From Candidatus Onthoplasma sp. (lineage in GTDB: Bacteria; Bacillota; Clostridia; Christensenellales; UBA1242): a stretch of DNA of 64,000 bases. This document shows positions 11,658 through 33,332 of the stretch, piece by piece. The translations under genes were made by a program, and so were the position numbers. The notes beneath the pieces were generated by a model. That model searched no databases, was not told where the DNA came from, and saw only the letters and a list, made by a program, of their open reading frames with translations. How positions within the stretch are numbered: position 1 is the stretch's first letter; each line of letters starts with the position of its first letter. The stretch covers positions 102,911 to 166,910 of the forward strand of contig JAZNKB010000006.1 in assembly GCA_045578345.1 (NCBI GenBank), given 5' to 3'.

Positions 11658-12824
11658 ATGATTTCAACATTATTAAGCGCATCATCAACATTCAAGTATA
11701 TTGGCTATATTCTTATAGCCATTCTTGTTTTATTGTTTATGGTGCTTATTCACGAACTGGGACATTATATTGCTGGAAAAATATTGAAGTTCAAAATAAA
11801 TGAATTTAGTATTGGTTTTGGCCCAAAAATTTTTCAAAGAAAAAATAAACAAGGTGAATTGGTTTCACTTAGAGCATTTCCTTTAGGTGGTTATTGCGCT
11901 TTTGAAGGTGAAACTGAAGAGAATAAGGACAACCCTCAAGCATTCAATAATCAAAAACCTTGGAAACGCTTAATTGTTTTGTTTTGTGGGGCTTTCTTTA
12001 ACTTCTTAAGTGGTATTATTTTCTCTTTCATTTTGCTTATTTCATCAGGTTATGATTTGGTTCAAGTGAAAAACGTTGATGCAACATCAATTAATTATAA
12101 TTGCTTGCAGTCTGGTGATGTTATTTACGGAATTGAAAATAGACAAATTGATTTCGTTGATGATGAATATTTCTCATCATTGATATCAAGATATCTTACT
12201 ATTTATCATTCTGATTATAATGGTGATGTTACACTAGAAATAAATAGCTTCACTGAAGATGGTAAAACATATTTCTTAGTTAAAACTCCAATAACTTTCA
12301 ACGTTAAGCGTGACGGAAAAAAAATAGAAGTTGAGGGATATGTTAACACAATATACGATTCAAATGGAGTATATTCGGGTTGGACATTACTTGCGTCTGA
12401 AGATGAAAACAGCAAAGAATTTGGACTTCGAACTTATAAATATTCTTTCTTTGAAGCATTAACGGAGGCAGTTCCATTTACTTGTAAATGGGCATGGAAA
12501 GTTCTTGTGATATTTGGTCAATTGTTAACTGGTCAATTATCAATCACTTCGCTAGGAGGCCCTGTTACAACCGTTAAAATGATTGCAAATTATACACAAC
12601 AAAATATGCTATTATTATTATTACCATTGATTGCTGTTAATCTTGCAGTTTTCAATTTGCTTCCAATTCCAGCGTTAGATGGATTCCAAATGATATTTGT
12701 TGCGATTGAGTGGATAAGGAAAAAACCTGTAAAACGTGAAATTGTCAATATGGTTAATAACATCGGTTTGATTGCTTTGTTTGGCTTTGTGATAGTGGTT
12801 GATATATTGCAATTTATACTATAA
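11658..12824 (+). CDS. rseP: RIP site-2 metalloprotease RseP/RasP
   Basis: HELGHY zinc motif and NLLPIPALDG motif. Confidence 0.88.
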   Translation: MISTLLSASSTFKYIGYILIAILVLLFMVLIHELGHYIAGKILKFKINEFSIGFGPKIFQRKNKQGELVSLRAFPLGGYCAFEGETEENKDNPQAFNNQKPWKRLIVLFCGAFFNFLSGIIFSFILLISSGYDLVQVKNVDATSINYNCLQSGDVIYGIENRQIDFVDDEYFSSLISRYLTIYHSDYNGDVTLEINSFTEDGKTYFLVKTPITFNVKRDGKKIEVEGYVNTIYDSNGVYSGWTLLASEDENSKEFGLRTYKYSFFEALTEAVPFTCKWAWKVLVIFGQLLTGQLSITSLGGPVTTVKMIANYTQQNMLLLLLPLIAVNLAVFNLLPIPALDGFQMIFVAIEWIRKKPVKREIVNMVNNIGLIALFGFVIVVDILQFIL

Positions 12825-12840
12825 ATAAGCATAATTATGA

Positions 12841-12872
12841 TTGGGAGTGTGTTGACACTCTCAATTTTTTTT
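12841..12872 (+). terminator. rho-independent terminator
   Basis: 10-bp stem TTGGGAGTGT/ACACTCTCAA plus T8. Confidence 0.8.
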
Positions 12873-12880
12873 GCTATAAT
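12852..12880 (+). promoter_or_regulatory. consensus sigma-A promoter embedded in the rseP terminator; TSS at ATG 12887 (leaderless candidate)
   Basis: TTGACA 12852-12857, 17 nt, TGc-TATAAT 12875-12880, 6 nt, ATG. No SD. Confidence 0.6.
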
Positions 12881-12886
12881 CCAAGT

Positions 12887-14416
12887 ATGAGAGAAGGAAT
12901 TGAAATCTTAGATTTGATTTACCAAGGACTAAAATTTAAAGATGCTGTTTACACGGAAAAAACGAACACTTGTGTAATTAATTTTTTATATAATCCTGAA
13001 AATTTCACACCAAATGAAGAAAATAAAACAACAATCATCACAAAGGTTAAGGAACTAATCGGGGATTTTATCCGTTTTGAGTTGGTGTTTAAGAGTTGTC
13101 CGTTAGATAAACGTGCCATTGCGAATCATACATACACAACAATTATTAATAACTTTCCATCGATTTCCAAAAGTTTTACATACGATGATGTTTCTGTTGA
13201 AATAGAGAATTTAAAAGTAACAATTAAGTTAAAACTAACGCCATCTAGTTATGATCATGCCAAAAGCCTTAACAGAGAATCAATAATTGAAGATAAACTT
13301 AAAGATAGTTTCTTTGCGGATTTCGTTGTTTCTTTTGATAAAAAGGATGATGAAATTGAATCTTCAAATCAAATTGAAAAGAATATGGAGCTCATGGCAA
13401 GCATCAAGGAAGCAGAAGAAAAAACAGTATATGAACTATCAAATATCGCCGATATCATAGGCAAAAATGAATATTCTCTTGCAATTGATTACACAAAAGT
13501 TAAAACCGCAATTGAAAACGTTGTTATCTGCGGTGAAGTTACAACTATTCAAAAGAAAACTTATAAGCGCAAAATAACTAAAAACAAGGAAGAAACTGAA
13601 ATTGAGCGCACGTTCTATAACTTTTCAATTAAGAATGATAATAAAGTGCTTTATTGCTCAGTTTTCCCAAAACAGCATGATGAAATCAAAGGTGATTTAA
13701 TTGAAGTTGGAATGAAAATTTGTTGTTTTGGTTCTTTCCGTGAGTTTAATGGAAAACTTAATTTTACAGCGAACTCCATTGCACGTTGCGACTATAAAAG
13801 AGAAGAGATAAAATCTGGTTTTAAGCACGTAAACGAAGATTATCACACTATATTACCTGAAAAATATATTGACTATGAGCAAGCGGGGCTTTTTGATGAC
13901 GACTCTAAAACTTTTGATGGTACATATGTTGTTTTCGACGTTGAAACAACCGGGTTGGATCCACTTAAAGAAGAGATAATTGAAATTGGAGCATGTAAGG
14001 TTGTTAATGGCAGAATTGATGAAGTATTTTCAACTTTTATAAAACCATCAAAACATATTCCAAGAGAAATCACAGAGCTAACAAGCATTAATGATGACAT
14101 GGTTAAAGATGCTCCAACAATAAATTATGTGATGCCAGACTTCTATAAATTTTGTGACGGAGCAACAATTGTGGCACAAAATACAGCGTTTGACATGTCT
14201 TTCATACACAATATCTCGAAGAAGTTGTCATATAATTTTAATCATCCAACAATGGATACATTGGTAATGGCAAGACAGAAACTTCCAGGGCTTAAAAACT
14301 ATAAACTTGGAACAATAGTCGAAAAATTGAATATAAGTTTGGAAAACGCGCATAGAGCAATTGATGACGCAACAGCAACCGCCAAAGCATTTATTAAACT
14401 TATGAATATGGCATAA
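12887..14416 (+). CDS. PolC-like protein: PolC N-terminal region, OB fold and DnaQ-type 3'-5' exonuclease, with no PHP or polymerase domains
   Basis: YVVFDVETTGL, IVAQNTAFDMSFI and HRAIDDATATAKAF (Exo I-III) closely resemble the PolC exonuclease. An OB-like segment lies upstream. The gene occupies the polC position between rseP and rimP. Confidence 0.75.
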   Translation: MREGIEILDLIYQGLKFKDAVYTEKTNTCVINFLYNPENFTPNEENKTTIITKVKELIGDFIRFELVFKSCPLDKRAIANHTYTTIINNFPSISKSFTYDDVSVEIENLKVTIKLKLTPSSYDHAKSLNRESIIEDKLKDSFFADFVVSFDKKDDEIESSNQIEKNMELMASIKEAEEKTVYELSNIADIIGKNEYSLAIDYTKVKTAIENVVICGEVTTIQKKTYKRKITKNKEETEIERTFYNFSIKNDNKVLYCSVFPKQHDEIKGDLIEVGMKICCFGSFREFNGKLNFTANSIARCDYKREEIKSGFKHVNEDYHTILPEKYIDYEQAGLFDDDSKTFDGTYVVFDVETTGLDPLKEEIIEIGACKVVNGRIDEVFSTFIKPSKHIPREITELTSINDDMVKDAPTINYVMPDFYKFCDGATIVAQNTAFDMSFIHNISKKLSYNFNHPTMDTLVMARQKLPGLKNYKLGTIVEKLNISLENAHRAIDDATATAKAFIKLMNMA

Positions 14417-14570
14417 GGGACCTTCGTTCTTTAAACTTGCCAAGATGGAAGTTTTGTATTTCCCTCTCACTAAGAAGCAAGCATAATCGTTCAAGGAAAA
14501 CACAAAACTCCTATAAATGCATAAGTTCAAACAAATTCAAAAAAATTATATGAAAATATTATAAAAACTA

Positions 14571-14599
14571 TTGATTTATTAGAAGTTGTATGTTATAAT
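14571..14599 (+). promoter_or_regulatory. rimP-nusA-infB operon promoter
   Basis: TTGATT 14571-14576, 17 nt, TGt-TATAAT 14594-14599. Confidence 0.6.
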
Positions 14600-14611
14600 A
14601 CAAATAACTAC

Positions 14612-14646
14612 TAGGAGTGGCCGGCGCCACTCCTAATTGATTTTTA
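14612..14646 (+). promoter_or_regulatory. GC-rich leader hairpin with interrupted U-tract (candidate attenuator)
   Basis: TAGGAGTGGC-CGGC-GCCACTCCTA 10-bp stem, then ATTGATTTTTA, about 12 nt after the predicted TSS. Confidence 0.5.
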
Positions 14647-14708
14647 TAGGGTGTGACCAAATGTTTTGGAAAACCTATTATGAAAAAATCTATATTTGGG
14701 GAGTAAAA

Positions 14709-15161
14709 ATGAAAGTTGCAGATTTAGTTTATGAAAAAATTAATCCACTTTTCACTGGTGATATTCAACTTGTTGAAGTGGAATATGCAAAAAAAAATGA
14801 CGGAATGCATTTAATAATTTACATTGAAAAGGAAACTGGTGTAACAGTTGATGATTGCGTGGAAGTGAGTCGCCTTATTGATGAACCATTGGAAGAGTTG
14901 AATCCAACTGGAGACGCACCATATTATTTGGATATTTCATCATATGGATTAGATAAACCACTTAAATATGATTGGCAATTTAAGAAATACGAAAATAAAC
15001 AAGTTAATGTGAAATTGTATGCAAAAATTGATGGAAGAAAGGAATTTGTTGCAACATTAAAACAAAAAACTGAAGATAGTGTTATTTTAAGTGTTGATGA
15101 TGAAAACATAAAAATAAACCTTAAAGACATTGCATATATTACACCATATATAGAGTTTTAA
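14709..15161 (+). CDS. rimP: ribosome maturation factor RimP
   Basis: Position upstream of nusA. GGGGAG RBS before ATG 14709; track ORF starts at TTG 14637. Confidence 0.9.
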   Translation: MKVADLVYEKINPLFTGDIQLVEVEYAKKNDGMHLIIYIEKETGVTVDDCVEVSRLIDEPLEELNPTGDAPYYLDISSYGLDKPLKYDWQFKKYENKQVNVKLYAKIDGRKEFVATLKQKTEDSVILSVDDENIKINLKDIAYITPYIEF

Positions 15162-15182
15162 AAGAAGGAGTTTTAATTTAAT

Positions 15183-16307
15183 ATGACTAGTAAAGATTTT
15201 TTTGAAGCATTAAAAGATTTAGAAGCAGAAAGGGGTATTCCTGAAGGAACATTCATCCCAATGTTGGAAAGAGCGTTAACAGCTGCACTTAAAAGACAAA
15301 GTGGTGCGGCACCAAACACAATGGTGAAACTTAATCCAGAAAAGTTCACAATTAAAGCATATTCATATAGAACAGTTGTTGATACAGTTGAAGATGAAGA
15401 AAAAGAAATTAGTTTAGAAGAAGCAAAACAAATTAAAAAGTCTTACAAAGTTGGCGACATGATTATGAAAGAAGAATCAACAAAAGACTTTAACAGAATT
15501 GCTGTTCAAACTGCAAAACAAGTTATCACTCAAGGCATTAAAGAAATTGAAAAACAATCAATTTATAAAGATATTGCTGAAAAAGAAGGCAAAATCATTG
15601 TCGCAAATGTTAAACGTCTTGATGTTGACAATGTTTATCTTGAAATTGGTGGAACAACTTTGGAAGGACTTCTTACAAAACGTGATATGTTGTCAACTGA
15701 TAACTTTAAGCCAGGCGATAGAGCAAAAGTTTATGTTCGTCACATTAAAGATGACTTCCGTGGAACAGTAGTTCAAGTGAGTAGAACTCATCCAAACTTT
15801 GTTAAAATGTTGCTTGAAATGGAAGTTCCTGAATTAAACAATGGTGAAGTCTCAATTGTTGGCTTGGTTCGTGAAGCAGGATTACGTACAAAAATCGCAG
15901 TGTCAACAAGCGTTCAAAATCTTGATGCTGTTGGCGCTTGTATTGGTAATAAAGGCGCAAGAATTAATTCAGTTATCAATGAACTTAATGGAGAAAAGAT
16001 TGACATCATTAATTATAGCGAAAATCCAGCAGATTACATTGTTGCAGCATTAAGTCCAGCAGAAGTTAGTGAAATCACTGTTGACACAGCCGCAGGTGTT
16101 GCAAATGTGCTTGTTCCAGAAAACAAGTTGTCTCTAGCTATTGGTAAAGGCGGACACAACGTTCGTTTGGCAGCAAAACTTACAGGTTATAAAATAGATG
16201 TTAAACCAACTTCAGCATTGGAAGCTCCAAAATCTAATGATGTTTTGAGCACAAGCAGTGCAAACATAATTTTAGATGACGATTTCTTTGATGATATTGA
16301 TGAATAG
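15183..16307 (+). CDS. nusA: transcription termination/antitermination factor NusA
   Basis: S1 and two KH regions (GACIGNKGARINSV, LAIGKGGHNVRLAAKLTG). Confidence 0.97.
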   Translation: MTSKDFFEALKDLEAERGIPEGTFIPMLERALTAALKRQSGAAPNTMVKLNPEKFTIKAYSYRTVVDTVEDEEKEISLEEAKQIKKSYKVGDMIMKEESTKDFNRIAVQTAKQVITQGIKEIEKQSIYKDIAEKEGKIIVANVKRLDVDNVYLEIGGTTLEGLLTKRDMLSTDNFKPGDRAKVYVRHIKDDFRGTVVQVSRTHPNFVKMLLEMEVPELNNGEVSIVGLVREAGLRTKIAVSTSVQNLDAVGACIGNKGARINSVINELNGEKIDIINYSENPADYIVAALSPAEVSEITVDTAAGVANVLVPENKLSLAIGKGGHNVRLAAKLTGYKIDVKPTSALEAPKSNDVLSTSSANIILDDDFFDDIDE

Positions 16308-28035: not shown

Positions 28036-28229
28036 AACAAAATATTAAAAGGTTAGAAGAAATAGCAAAATTGCTTGAACAAGGAACTAATCTTGACGAA
28101 AGTTTAAAGCTATATGAAGAAGGCTGTAAACTGGCAAAAAGTTGCCTAAAAGAGTTGGAAAAAGCAAAAGGAAAGATTATAATGATAAAGAAAGAATTTA
28201 ACGAAAAGGATGAAAACGATGGAGAATAA
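28029..28229 (+). CDS. xseB: exodeoxyribonuclease VII small subunit
   Basis: 66-aa helical protein (LEEIAKLLEQG..SLKLYEEG) overlapping the xseA stop. Confidence 0.85.
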   Translation: MLEQNIKRLEEIAKLLEQGTNLDESLKLYEEGCKLAKSCLKELEKAKGKIIMIKKEFNEKDENDGE

Positions 28230-29646
28230 ACAATTTGTAACAGATATTGCAGATATTAATACAGATTTTGCACAATGGTATACTGACGTTGTGTTAAAGA
28301 CTGACATGGTTGATTATGGACCAGTTAAAGGAACAATGGTTATTAAACCATATGGCTATGCAATATGGGAAAACATTCAAAACTATTTAAATAAGGAATT
28401 TAGAAAACAAGGAGTTGAAAATGCATATTTTCCAATGCTAATTCCTGAAAGTTTTTTAATGAAAGAAGCAGAACATGTTGAAGGTTTTGCTCCAGAAGTT
28501 GCAGTTGTAACTCATGCTGGTGGTGAAGAATTAAATGAAAAACTAATAATTCGCCCAACAAGTGAAACAATTATATGCGACATGTATTCAAAATGGATTA
28601 AATCTTATCGTGATTTACCTGTTAAAATGAATCAATGGTGTAATGTATTAAGATGGGAAAAAACAACTAGACCTTTCTTAAGAACAAGTGAATTCTTATG
28701 GCAAGAAGGACATACTGTTCAATCGTGTCCAGAAGATGCAGAAAATGATGCGAAAACAATGTTAAAGGTTTACACAGATTGTTTAAAAAATCTTTTAGCC
28801 ATTCCAACCCTCACAGGAAGAAAAACAGAGAATGAAAAATTTGCTGGCGCATTAGTAACATATAGCATGGAAGCAATCATGAAAGACGGAAAGTGTTTGC
28901 AATCTGGAACAACTCATGATTTGGGTCAAAATTTTGCTAAAGCAAGCAATATTAAGTTCTTAAATAAAGAAGGTCAACTTGAATATGGATATTCAACAAG
29001 TTGGGGTGTTAGCACAAGACTTATTGGTGCTTTGGTTATGGTTCATGGTGATGAACGTGGCCTTAGAATGCCGCCAAATGTTGCTCCAATTCAAACGGTT
29101 ATAATTCCAATTGCAAGCAAAAAAGAAGGTGTTATTGAAAAGTGTGAAGAAGTTAAAAACATTCTTGAAACTGCAGATTTAAGAGTTAAACTTGACAATT
29201 CAAATAACACTCCAGGTTGGAAATTTAATGAATATGAAATGAAAGGAGTGCCACTTCGTCTTGAAATTGGCCCAAGAGATATTGAAAACGGTGTTGCAAC
29301 AGCTGTAAGACGCGACACTCATGAAAAAGTACAATTAAATTTAAGTAACATAAAAGAAGAGGTTGAAAACTTACTTAAAGATATCCAAGAAAACATGTAT
29401 AATCAAGCAGTTGAAAATTTCAATTCTGCAATCGTAGAAACTGAAAATTATGATGATATGGTAAATGCTGTAAACAACAAAAAGGTTGTTTTGTCATATC
29501 ATTGCGGAAATTCAAACTGTGAAGAAAAAATTCGTCAAAATACAACAATTAAAACTCGAGTTATACATTCTATGGATAACGCTCATAAATGTGTTTATTG
29601 TGGTAAAGAGAGTAAATATAGAGTGTACTTTGGGAAACAATATTAA
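28210..29646 (+). CDS. proS: proline--tRNA ligase, archaeal/eukaryotic-like type
   Basis: FAQWYTDVVLKTDMVDYGPVKGTMVIKPYG N-terminus; class II motifs; C-terminal Cys cluster; 478 aa with no bacterial insertion domain. Confidence 0.92.
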   Translation: MKTMENKQFVTDIADINTDFAQWYTDVVLKTDMVDYGPVKGTMVIKPYGYAIWENIQNYLNKEFRKQGVENAYFPMLIPESFLMKEAEHVEGFAPEVAVVTHAGGEELNEKLIIRPTSETIICDMYSKWIKSYRDLPVKMNQWCNVLRWEKTTRPFLRTSEFLWQEGHTVQSCPEDAENDAKTMLKVYTDCLKNLLAIPTLTGRKTENEKFAGALVTYSMEAIMKDGKCLQSGTTHDLGQNFAKASNIKFLNKEGQLEYGYSTSWGVSTRLIGALVMVHGDERGLRMPPNVAPIQTVIIPIASKKEGVIEKCEEVKNILETADLRVKLDNSNNTPGWKFNEYEMKGVPLRLEIGPRDIENGVATAVRRDTHEKVQLNLSNIKEEVENLLKDIQENMYNQAVENFNSAIVETENYDDMVNAVNNKKVVLSYHCGNSNCEEKIRQNTTIKTRVIHSMDNAHKCVYCGKESKYRVYFGKQY

Positions 29647-30891: not shown

Positions 30892-32406
30892 ATGAAAGAG
30901 AGATGGTTTAATTATCGACCGTTATGTTTGGTGTTTGGATTCCTTCTTTTAGGAAGTGTTTTTTCATTCTATGCGCCTAAAAACACCGTTCTCACAATAA
31001 TTACAACTATATCAATTGCTGTTGCATTAACGATTATTGCAATATTAAAAAAGAAACCTCAATATGTGCTTGTTCCTGTTATTGCCTTTGGAGTTGGTTT
31101 GGGATTATATAATCTTGCAGTATTTAATTTTAATAAATCCGTAGATTACACACCTTCAAGCATACAAGCAAGAATTTACAATATTGTTGACGAATATGAT
31201 GGAATGATAAAAGTTGAAGCTGATAGTTTAAAATTTGACGATAAAAAAATTAATGATAACATAATAATATACATCTATGACAATGACGGACTTTTTGAAA
31301 ACATTGAAATTGGAAGCTTAATTGAATTTGAACCATACAGATTTTATAAAAGTGATTTATTCTATTACGACACACCTAGTTCAAGTTTATATGAAGACGA
31401 TTTAAAATATACAACGAGTGCTTTCATGATTAATGTTAAACATATATCGACAGATAAAACATTTGCAGAAGCAATAAGGGAGAGAGTTAAAGATAATCTT
31501 GAGCTTGGACTAACAAATGAGAATGCCGAAATTGCCTATTCAGCATTGTTTGGAGATAAGGATTTATTATCAGATAAGCAATATTCAGTGTATAAACTTT
31601 CTGGTGTTGCGCATCTGCTTGCTGTATCTGGTTTGCACGTTGGAATTATTGTTGGAATTCTAAATCTTATTTTTAAGAAATTAAAGGTAAAAGGTTGGCT
31701 TAAATTTTTTGTCACTGCAGTTTTCTTAATGCTTTATATGTACATTTGTGATTATTCAGTTTCAATAATAAGAGCAACAATCATGTCTTTAATTCTATTG
31801 TTATCTCAAATTCTTCATAAGCAATATGATAGTTTTAATTCAATATCTGTGGCGGGAATTGTGATATTTTTAATTAATCCGTTCTGTGTGTTTGATGTTG
31901 CGTTCTTGCTAAGTTTTTCATGCGTGATTGGAATAACAATGCTTTACCGCCCAATAAGAAGGGCTTTAGCAAAAACTCATATGAATGCAAAAATTAGAGA
32001 CGCTGCTGCAATAAGCTTGGCAACAAGCATTGCAATTGTTATGATTATGGCTTTCTATTTTAGAACACTCAACGTGATATCTTTGATTGCAAATGTGATT
32101 TTAATTCCAATTTTCACGGTTGCATTTAGTATCGTTTTTGTGGTTTCAATTGTATCAATACCGTTTTCAATTGTTTCATATGTGTTGATGCCAGTTGATT
32201 ACATATTCAATTTAATTAACTTGATTGCAACAACTCTTGGCAATCTTTCAATTTCTAACTTTAATACAATTGAATTTAACTATATTGCAATTATAATATA
32301 TTTTGTTCTTTTGTTATTTATAAGTCGTTTTTGCACCGCAAAATATCAATATAAAATCGTTTCAGCATTGCCAATTGTTGCTTTGTTGTTTTATTGTCTG
32401 ATATAA
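30892..32406 (+). CDS. comEC: competence protein ComEC/Rec2 (membrane channel domain only)
   Basis: LSGVAHLLAVSGLHVG motif; polytopic; upstream of holA as in Bacillus. Confidence 0.85.
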   Translation: MKERWFNYRPLCLVFGFLLLGSVFSFYAPKNTVLTIITTISIAVALTIIAILKKKPQYVLVPVIAFGVGLGLYNLAVFNFNKSVDYTPSSIQARIYNIVDEYDGMIKVEADSLKFDDKKINDNIIIYIYDNDGLFENIEIGSLIEFEPYRFYKSDLFYYDTPSSSLYEDDLKYTTSAFMINVKHISTDKTFAEAIRERVKDNLELGLTNENAEIAYSALFGDKDLLSDKQYSVYKLSGVAHLLAVSGLHVGIIVGILNLIFKKLKVKGWLKFFVTAVFLMLYMYICDYSVSIIRATIMSLILLLSQILHKQYDSFNSISVAGIVIFLINPFCVFDVAFLLSFSCVIGITMLYRPIRRALAKTHMNAKIRDAAAISLATSIAIVMIMAFYFRTLNVISLIANVILIPIFTVAFSIVFVVSIVSIPFSIVSYVLMPVDYIFNLINLIATTLGNLSISNFNTIEFNYIAIIIYFVLLLFISRFCTAKYQYKIVSALPIVALLFYCLI

Positions 32407-32417
32407 TAGGAGAGAAT

Positions 32418-33332
32418 ATGAAATTTATCGAATTAAACAAAAACATTAAAGAAATGGTTAAGCCTTTATATAATCTAAAAGGTGATGATTTTTACTTGGT
32501 TAAGCAAGCTCTATCAAACATTAAATCATATCTTATTAAGGATTTAGAAGAATTCAACTTTGTTAATGTAGATGCCGATAAAATGAAAAAAGAGCAAGCT
32601 TACGAGCAAATTGCAACACTCCCAATGGTAAATGACTATAGATTAGTTGTTTTCAATAATCCTAATCAGGAAATTGTGAAATTTCTTAATAAATTTGATT
32701 TTGAAAATGAATCAACGGTTGTGGTGTGTATCCAAGCTGAAGGTTTAACTGTTGGTGAGGTTGTTGATTGTTCAAAACTTGATAGAAATGATTTAACTAA
32801 ATATATTTTAAATTATCTTTCTAAATGTAATTTATCAATTGAGGAACAGGCTTTGGACTACATTATTGATGCCACAAATGGCAATATGACAAAAATAGTT
32901 AACGAATTAAACAAAATCTCATCATATTGTGTGGATTTGGAAACTGTAACAATGAATATTGTTACAAACCTGGTTGCAAATTCTCAAGAATATGCAATTT
33001 ATAACCTTACAAATGCTATTGATACGAAAAACTTTTCAAACTATCAAAAAATTTTAAATGATTTAATAAAATCGCAATCTCAGTCTGAAATTTTTGCATA
33101 TATGGGTAAATATTTCAAAAGAATGCAATATATTGCTTTGAGTAAGGATGATGATGAACTGTCTAAAATTTTAAATATAAAACCATATGCAGTTGCAATG
33201 TCGAGAAAAAGCGTTGCAAGTAATGGTGTGAAATATTATATCGGCTTATATGAAAAGTATATCGAATTGGATCATAAAATTAAATCTGGTGAGATAACAG
33301 CCACAAATGCTTTATATGAACTCATTTTTTAG
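32418..33332 (+). CDS. holA: DNA polymerase III delta subunit
   Basis: TAGGAGAG RBS before ATG 32418. Length and comEC-holA-rpsT synteny. Confidence 0.8.
   Translation: MKFIELNKNIKEMVKPLYNLKGDDFYLVKQALSNIKSYLIKDLEEFNFVNVDADKMKKEQAYEQIATLPMVNDYRLVVFNNPNQEIVKFLNKFDFENESTVVVCIQAEGLTVGEVVDCSKLDRNDLTKYILNYLSKCNLSIEEQALDYIIDATNGNMTKIVNELNKISSYCVDLETVTMNIVTNLVANSQEYAIYNLTNAIDTKNFSNYQKILNDLIKSQSQSEIFAYMGKYFKRMQYIALSKDDDELSKILNIKPYAVAMSRKSVASNGVKYYIGLYEKYIELDHKIKSGEITATNALYELIF

Follow-up and report, generated by a model that had tools for sequence, protein, structure and literature searches.

A PolC-derived protein without polymerase domains in the polC slot of Candidatus Onthoplasma and related Clostridia: a putative clamp-tethered proofreading subunit

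In a 64-kb stretch of the genome of Candidatus Onthoplasma sp. (positions 102,911 to 166,910 of contig JAZNKB010000006.1, assembly GCA_045578345.1; hereafter "the window", with an overall G + C content of ~30%), the place between rseP and rimP-nusA that is held by polC in other Firmicutes is occupied by a gene coding for a much shorter protein. As judged from profile comparisons, this protein is derived from PolC: its N-terminal domain (NTD), OB domain and DEDDh (DnaQ-type) 3'-5' exonuclease domain are all homologous to, and collinear with, those of PolC. The polymerase parts are gone, and the linker ahead of the exonuclease carries a motif of the kind that binds the beta sliding clamp. The interpretation favored here, and held with slightly better than even confidence, is that the protein represents a PolC-derived, polymerase-less, clamp-tethered proofreading subunit that would act in trans, by analogy with the epsilon subunit of Escherichia coli.

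An earlier, sequence-only reading of this locus had described the 509-amino-acid (aa) product as a PolC-like N-terminal region, an OB segment and a DnaQ-type exonuclease in this order, had noted the lack of PHP, palm/fingers and HhH sequences after Exo III, and had suggested that a stand-alone proofreading/OB module remained at the ancestral polC locus. All three points were borne out, the first by the open reading frame (ORF), hhalign, Pfam and an AlphaFold2 model, the second by Pfam and by tblastn of the window and 16 family loci, and the third by synteny across all loci examined and 70 polC loci. Of the checks that this reading had proposed, domain annotation with hidden Markov models, structure prediction, a phylogeny of the exonuclease against PolC, and a survey of the architecture in relatives were carried out. 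The relocated clamp-type motif and the size and depth of the protein family are additions to that reading.

Domain architecture and descent from PolC

The RNase_T model (PF00929) matched aa 348–502 of the protein (E = 1.6e-38; 133.3 bits versus a cut-off of 24), and the threshold of the DnaQ/epsilon family model TIGR00573 was also passed (105.7 versus 71.5). The best-matching NCBIfam model was the PolC model NF001688, in which aa 338–508 aligned to positions 416–587 of 1445, but the score of 183.7 bits lay below the curated PolC threshold of 873, and TIGR01405 (PolC) likewise remained below its threshold (166.6 versus 1043). The catalytic DEDDh residues of Exo I, II and III (D351, E353, D436, H489, and D494) were invariant in all 138 representatives of the protein family described below. 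With curated cut-offs passed and catalytic residues intact, the protein is thus assigned to the DEDDh/DnaQ superfamily. The OB model PF01336 gave a sub-threshold match (aa 212–298; E = 0.005) in the window protein and a significant one in 76 of 90 family members. An AlphaFold2 model calculated from a diverse alignment (mean predicted local distance difference test score, pLDDT, 93.8; predicted template modeling score 0.68) placed two alpha/beta subdomains first, followed by an OB barrel and the exonuclease. The second NTD subdomain (aa 75–152) has the order alpha-beta-beta-alpha-alpha-beta and resembles a type II KH fold, which has also been predicted for the NTD of PolC (PMC3919608). The final helix of the exonuclease fold also forms the C-terminus of the protein, which thus lies at a clean domain boundary.

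By BLASTP against the PolC proteins of Christensenella and of locus L013, only the exonuclease could be aligned (41–50% identity), with no match of the NTD or OB domain, and the Pfam families of the PolC N-terminus did not match the window protein. The latter result is uninformative because two of three control PolCs (those of Christensenella and L013) were likewise missed by these families. Therefore, the evidence for PolC descent of the N-terminal half stems from profile-profile comparison with hhalign, for which the exonuclease was removed on both sides and the 138 family representatives were compared with 33 non-redundant, diverse PolCs from the collected loci. The N-terminal halves matched with 99.5% probability (E = 8e-23) over 284 collinear columns. 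Taken separately, the NTD (96.2%; E = 2e-9; collinear) and the OB domain (99.0%; E = 4e-18) also matched PolC, and the 34-residue linker between the OB domain and the exonuclease found no match in PolC including the N-terminal PHP segment (PHP-N). This outcome speaks against the possibility, raised in the sequence-only reading, of a generic DnaQ exonuclease lacking homology to the NTD and OB domain of PolC. In structure comparisons with Foldseek, the best match in the PDB was the full-length PolC of Enterococcus faecium (9qpc; E = 5e-20), which extended over 378–386 columns covering the OB domain and the exonuclease, as compared to about 165 columns for exonuclease-only matches. Since the NTD is unresolved in 9qpc (PMC12592400), this match corroborates the OB and exonuclease domains only. 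When the family profile was compared with solved structures, the PolC exonuclease domains 2p1j (1e-62) and 9qpc (2e-52) ranked first, ahead of DinG and epsilon.

A neighbor-joining tree of the exonuclease domains (139 family and 33 PolC sequences in a short alignment; 200 bootstraps) separated the family from PolC in 177 of 200 replicates, which is consistent with a single origin of the family. Three sequences considered as outgroups proved unsuitable: P0137 turned out to be a partial family sequence, P0241 clustered with the family, and P0258 remained among the PolCs. P0241 (1045 aa), which gave a high-scoring exonuclease match, is an unrelated protein in which three tandem DEDDh exonuclease domains precede a GIY-YIG/UvrC-like C-terminal region, and P0258 is another unrelated multi-DEDDh protein.

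No PHP domain, Pol3 core (PF07733, PF17657) or HhH domain (PF14579) was found by Pfam in the window protein, whereas the control PolCs carry the Pol3 core and HhH, with PHP (PF02811) split around PF00929. The tblastn searches with the PHP-N and post-exonuclease parts of PolC yielded nothing at E ≤ 1e-3 in the 64-kb window or in the 16 family loci. There is no polymerase ORF in the window, whose large ORFs code for PBP1, MutS, MutL, GlmS, RNase Y, ComEC, ProRS, SerRS, MiaB, and an ABC permease, nor does a polymerase gene adjoin the family gene in any of the contexts examined (loci ±10 kb). As far as domain and translated searches can tell, the gene has thus lost both halves of PHP, the palm, thumb and fingers, HhH, and the C-terminal clamp-binding tail. 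The protein is not a PolC polymerase, because the tests for PHP, Pol3, HhH, the C-terminal tail and the curated PolC scores all failed. Purine asymmetry has been used as a proxy for PolC (PMC4070872); in the window, the purine excess tracks the coding strand, and four-fold degenerate sites show an AT skew of about 0.

Table 1. Location of the PolC-derived gene, its parts and its flanking features in the window (the coding sequence includes the stop codon).
Feature	Position	Strand	Remarks
rseP (M50 site-2 protease), upstream flank of the ancestral polC slot	11658..12824	+	ORF; PF02163 in orthologous loci
Terminator-like hairpin and T-run after rseP	12839..12866	+	12 pairs, 4 of them GC; loop and stem contain the -35 element of the next promoter
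Sigma-70 consensus promoter	12852..12880	+	TTGACA-17-TATAAT with TG extension; 12/12 match
Coding sequence of the PolC-derived protein	12887..14416	+	ATG start; 509 aa
NTD, aa 1-178	12887..13420	+	Two alpha/beta subdomains; homolog of the PolC NTD (hhalign)
OB-fold domain, aa 179-306	13421..13804	+	Homolog of the PolC OB domain (hhalign, PF01336, Foldseek)
Linker element Y319-x-x-[VI]322-x-P324-x-x-Y327	13841..13867	+	Conserved; modeled as extended and confidently placed
Putative beta-clamp-binding motif Q332-A-G-L335-F336	13880..13894	+	Family consensus Q-x-[NDS]-[LFMI]-[FL]
DEDDh (DnaQ-type) 3'-5' exonuclease domain, aa 341-509	13907..14413	+	PF00929; catalytic D351, E353, D436, H489, D494
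Non-coding spacer before rimP	14417..14708	+	No relic of PolC coding sequence (tblastn: chance-level matches only)
rimP (start probably at 14709) and nusA, flanking the ancestral polC slot downstream	14709..16307	+

The ancestral polC slot and the protein family

The gene directly follows rseP in every locus examined. Downstream, the order rimP-nusA-ylxR-ylxQ-infB-rbfA-truB was found in the window, and rimP-nusA-infB follows the family gene in the window and in loci L001, L004–L012, L014, L084, L085, L087, and L089. The slot is kept even in the very distant loci L084 and L014, in which NusA is 46–53%, IF2 about 46–47%, and the family protein 31–37% identical to the window sequences. For comparison, 70 loci with a genuine polC (1,400–1,660 aa from stop to stop where uncut by a contig end) were collected, of which 61 have rseP upstream and 34 have nusA downstream. 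Because real polC genes occupy the slot between rseP and nusA elsewhere, the family can be regarded as the positional ortholog of polC. Locus L013 was rejected as a close PolC-bearing relative on account of its G + C content of 49.5% and the absence of shared synteny.

In Bacilli the gene order is rseP-proS-polC-rimP-nusA. The sequence-only reading had drawn on this order, and the flanks rseP and rimP-nusA are indeed present, but proS is not part of the slot and lies at 28210–29646, ~14 kb downstream. It codes for a ProRS of the archaeal/eukaryal type with a ProRS-C_1 domain. The genes dxr and ispG are likewise absent from the slot. The junction 3' of the family gene tolerates insertions: L085 has an alcohol dehydrogenase gene between the family gene and rimP (L085 11583–12662), and in L088 the linkage to rseP is kept and is followed by an island coding for a LexA-like repressor, a phage integrase and a CD-NTase (CBASS-like) instead of rimP-nusA (L088 11724–14455). 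In all hosts with sufficient flanking sequence, the spoIIIA operon is located a few genes further downstream, and these hosts are therefore considered to be spore-formers.

A protein search across 5.8 billion proteins retrieved 447 relatives. The best 120 of these 447 have lengths of 500–533 aa (except P0042 and P0117), cover 98–100% of the query and are 64–89% identical to it; many of them reside on contigs of 100–290 kb, and the contigs of the loci examined reach up to 474 kb. An exhaustive profile search over 1.84 billion representatives clustered at 50% identity was also performed, and its best 150 representatives were assessed. Of these, 139 are 497–547 aa long and align to the profile between about residues 10 and 505, which corresponds to at least 139 clusters at 50% identity, and no full-length PolC was among the 150. 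The tight length distribution and the at least 139 clusters that match from end to end indicate that stand-alone proteins of this kind form a large and old family. Its members are almost exclusively metagenomic sequences. The species genomes in GTDB that contain close relatives belong to Candidatus Onthoplasma (Christensenellales in the NCBI taxonomy) and to other metagenome-assembled genomes of Clostridia.

The ratio of non-synonymous to synonymous substitution rates (dN/dS) was 0.03–0.08 in each of the NTD, OB domain, linker and exonuclease (Nei-Gojobori method, against three orthologs, with dS near saturation). These ratios reveal a functional gene under strong purifying selection in every domain. 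A supposed short variant of 399 aa in L014 was rejected, as its frame is open to base 1 and the gene is cut by the start of the contig. In P0042 (891 aa) and P0117 (794 aa) the RseP protease (PF02163) is fused to the family protein; both are probably artifacts of gene calling or frameshifts. The existing database labels are in conflict with each other and include "PolC-type DNA polymerase III" (P0062), "3'-5' exoribonuclease" (P0003, P0016), and "hypothetical protein"; neither the first nor the second of these labels fits the protein. A model for the NTD-OB-exonuclease architecture is found neither in NCBIfam nor in Pfam.

The relocated clamp-type motif and the flanking spacers

The pattern Q-x-[NDS]-[LFMI]-[FL] occurs in register in the linker between the OB domain and the exonuclease in 131 of the 138 family representatives, at a chance expectation of 0.008 per 45-residue window (derived from its background frequency elsewhere in the family). 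All of the 60 full-length PolCs with a complete C-terminus carry Q-[LMI]-S-[LF]-F there, and the 130 residues ahead of Exo I contain no such motif in any of them. Conversely, none of the 138 family representatives has a C-terminal clamp motif. The linker motif has the form of a bacterial beta-clamp-binding motif, and it is predicted to bind the clamp. In the AlphaFold2 model, confidence within the C-terminal half is lowest in the QxxLF block (pLDDT 72), as would be expected for an exposed short linear motif. To judge from these motif counts, a clamp-type motif appeared, or was kept by selection, at a new site with the loss of the polymerase and its clamp-binding tail. This relocation provides the strongest hint about the function of the protein.

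Five residues upstream of the start of the clamp-type motif ends a second linker element, Y-x-x-[VI]-x-P-x-x-Y, which is as conserved as the catalytic residues (Y319 in 132, V/I322 in 132, and P324 in 135 of the 138 representatives) and was modeled with a pLDDT of about 94 (Y319–Y327). It has no counterpart in PolC according to the comparison of the linker with the PolC profile, and it might serve as a structural strap or as a second peptide that binds a partner.

The promoter of the gene ends 6 nt before the ATG start codon and a Shine-Dalgarno sequence is absent; therefore, the mRNA is probably leaderless. The layout of hairpin and promoter is conserved in L004–L007, L009, L010, L012, and L085 and is not shared by L001 or L084. 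Downstream of the gene, a non-coding gap before rimP does exist as had been noted earlier, but the length of 220 bp then given extends only to a mechanical TTG start of the ORF at 14637. The likely start of rimP is the ATG at 14709 (MKVADLV..., preceded by GGGGAG), which results in a spacer of 292 bp. This spacer contains a promoter-like site (14571–14599), followed by a GC-rich hairpin with a T-run (14612–14635) and a tiny ORF (14680–14706), and the region 14571–14708 looks like a transcription attenuator of the rimP-nusA-infB operon. An Rfam search of the spacers gave no family match.

Some features of the window are located far from the polC slot. Between 47000 and 58000 the replication polarity seems to switch in a terminus-like manner: the cumulative GC skew peaks near 48 kb, the GC skew at four-fold degenerate sites of plus-strand genes changes from +0.09 (1–47 kb) to -0.38 (52–58 kb), and gene orientation turns mixed. 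A dif site of the Bacillus subtilis type was not found in the window within three mismatches. The segment 47.3–48.2 kb lacks any ORF of at least 50 aa. A 312-aa ORF (32394–33332) directly follows comEC, a position usually held by holA, the gene of the delta subunit of the clamp loader; if it is holA, this ORF would be a useful handle for reconstructing the replisome of the lineage.

Proofreading in trans and alternative explanations

All PolC modules that do not synthesize DNA are kept in the family, namely the NTD, the OB domain, a putatively active proofreader and a clamp motif. In the scenario proposed here, polC would have been reduced to these parts in a deep clade of uncultured, spore-forming Clostridia that includes Candidatus Onthoplasma. 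The protein would be recruited to the beta sliding clamp via the QxxLF motif in its linker, the NTD may add recruitment to the clamp loader, and the OB domain may add recruitment to the single-stranded template. Misincorporated 3' nucleotides would then be removed in trans for a C-family polymerase encoded elsewhere, most likely DnaE1, so that the protein would be a functional analog of E. coli epsilon. A contact to the clamp loader has been proposed for the NTD of PolC (PMC3919608). DnaE1 is certain to exist in these genomes because every bacterium has a DnaE-type polymerase (PMC12926913); moreover, some Clostridia possess DnaE1 only, and clostridial DnaE1 retains a putative epsilon-binding surface (PMC3919608). 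In E. coli, optimal proofreading depends on a canonical motif by which epsilon attaches to the clamp (PMC3642679). The DnaQ protein of mycobacteria interacts with the beta clamp and shares proofreading with DnaE1 (PMC11348249), and the PolC exonuclease of B. subtilis corrects errors of DnaE in trans within a complex of DnaE, PolC and template (PMC5627055). These precedents make trans-proofreading by the window protein plausible. The more far-reaching scenario, in which the whole clade gave up the PolC polymerase and polC became an epsilon-like subunit that retained the replisome-tethering domains, gained an internal clamp motif and proofreads for DnaE1 as sole replicase, is offered more tentatively and is given somewhat less than an even chance.

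Several observations weigh against an epsilon-like role. The clamp-type motif is out of register or absent in 7 of the 138 representatives, and the conserved Y-x-x-V-x-P-x-x-Y element is not explained by this role. The motif is also no proof of a function at the replication fork, because many non-replicative proteins carry QxxLF, and the clamp motif of mycobacterial DnaQ is reported to be dispensable for its antimutator function (PMC11348249). That DnaE1 is the sole polymerase of these genomes is an assumption. Lastly, bootstrap support for the split between the family and PolC falls to 18 of 200 when three unrelated or outgroup DEDDh sequences join the neighbor-joining tree.

The main alternative is a split PolC, in which the NTD, OB domain and exonuclease would be encoded at the ancestral locus and an exonuclease-less PHP-Pol3-HhH polymerase elsewhere after a duplication, with products that reassemble or cooperate on the clamp. 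It holds this rank because exonuclease-less PolC variants do exist and are almost exclusive to Clostridia and Negativicutes (PMC3919608). Retention of all non-polymerase modules would agree with it, as would a clamp motif of its own, which would permit the protein to share the clamp with the polymerase. However, neither PHP nor Pol3 was detected in the window or in the 10 kb to either side of the gene in the 16 loci, and the published exonuclease-less PolCs are reported to lack the exonuclease insertion only. Since the PHP-N segment is absent from the linker, simple gene fission does not account for the locus, and duplication with complementary deletions would be needed. A split PolC is thus considered unlikely, even if it deserves to be kept in mind.

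A specialized paralog, the other option of the sequence-only reading, would be an extra exonuclease in an organism that still encodes an ordinary full-length PolC at another locus. Several free-standing homologs of DnaQ are commonly present in bacteria (PMC12926913). In this case, however, the polC slot itself is occupied by the family gene in all loci examined, across a clade in which NusA is only 46–53% identical, and the essential polC would have had to move first. In addition, no second locus with a PolC-type exonuclease emerged from the nine in-clade GTDB assemblies among the best 80 of 201 relatives, although about 70 PolCs of other taxa were picked up through the shared peptide INDDMVKD. 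This last piece of evidence is weak because of that sampling and because the scan depends on a peptide pattern. An accessory paralog is therefore disfavored and appears quite improbable. No more credit is given to a clamp-associated repair nuclease that would serve, for example, in the excision step of mismatch repair or in trimming 3' ends at stalled forks or on Okazaki fragments. Numerous repair proteins contain QxxLF motifs, the combination of an OB domain with a 3'-5' exonuclease would suit the processing of single-stranded DNA ends, and no partner polymerase was found in the window or in the loci examined. On the other hand, the PolC-specific NTD is kept under strong purifying selection, descent and position are those of a replicase gene, and the gene is apparently single-copy, with a fixed housekeeping locus and a constitutive-type promoter. 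Mis-assembly of a normal polC, which had been considered earlier, or its decay after a recent nonsense or deletion mutation has nothing but the truncated appearance of the gene in its favor and can practically be dismissed in view of the 447 relatives on independent contigs of up to 474 kb, the at least 139 clusters of the same length, the clean domain boundary at the C-terminus, a dN/dS of about 0.04, and the absence of relics.

Comparison with known systems helps to delimit the proposed proofreading subunit. It resembles PolC (E. faecium 9qpc, Geobacillus kaustophilus) in the order of NTD, OB and DEDDh domains, in the slot from rseP to rimP-nusA and in the QxxLF-type motif. In PolC, however, the exonuclease is inserted in PHP and the clamp motif is C-terminal, whereas the window protein has no such insertion, bears its motif in the linker, and, without PHP, palm/thumb/fingers, HhH and C-terminal tail, cannot polymerize DNA. 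E. coli epsilon serves as the working analogy, as it is a stand-alone DEDDh proofreader with a clamp motif next to the catalytic domain, but it has neither NTD nor OB domain, its clamp motif follows the exonuclease, and its C-terminal peptide binds the PHP domain of alpha. The window exonuclease is nearer to the exonuclease domains of PolC (1e-62, 2e-52) than to epsilon (4e-26), and its origin is independent. The exonuclease-less PolC variants (Timinskas et al., 2014, PMC3919608) stem from the same broad taxon and also reflect an uncoupling of exonuclease and polymerase in lineages with PolC and DnaE1, but with the reciprocal architecture, in which the polymerase was kept and the exonuclease lost. 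Mycobacterial DnaQ (Deng et al., 2024, PMC11348249) is a separate clamp-binding DEDDh exonuclease that co-proofreads for DnaE1; it belongs to an unrelated lineage, has another genomic context and contains no PolC-derived NTD or OB domain, and clamp binding in the present family is predicted from sequence. DinG of Staphylococcus aureus (8zef) shares a similar DEDDh fold (Foldseek root mean square deviation of 1.1–1.3 Å over about 163 columns) but is a helicase-like fusion lacking NTD and OB and scores lower in sequence (4e-39, compared to 1e-62 for PolC exonuclease domains).

Literature searches did not reveal a description of a polymerase-less PolC, and the two systematic polymerase surveys had dropped polymerase-less or truncated sequences before analysis. 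For clostridial replisomes that contain PolC and DnaE1, whose division of labor is still open, Timinskas et al. (2014) raised the questions of whether DnaE1 could be the principal replicase and of why clostridial DnaE1 should have preserved a surface for epsilon binding although no epsilon is known there (PMC3919608). The family looks like a natural experiment on this question: the polymerase has vanished from the polC locus, the proofreader and the tethering domains have been retained under strong selection throughout a very diverse clade, and a clamp-type motif is found at a new site. If DnaE1 is the partner, proofreading in trans by the PolC exonuclease, which has been observed in vitro in B. 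subtilis, can end up as the only function that the gene retains. Separate proofreading subunits would then have evolved more than once, with an independent case within the Firmicutes, and if DnaE1 is also the sole replicase, the family would be evidence from nature that a clostridial chromosome can be replicated by DnaE1 alone. Moreover, PolC inhibitors such as ibezapolstat would find no target in an abundant group of gut Firmicutes.

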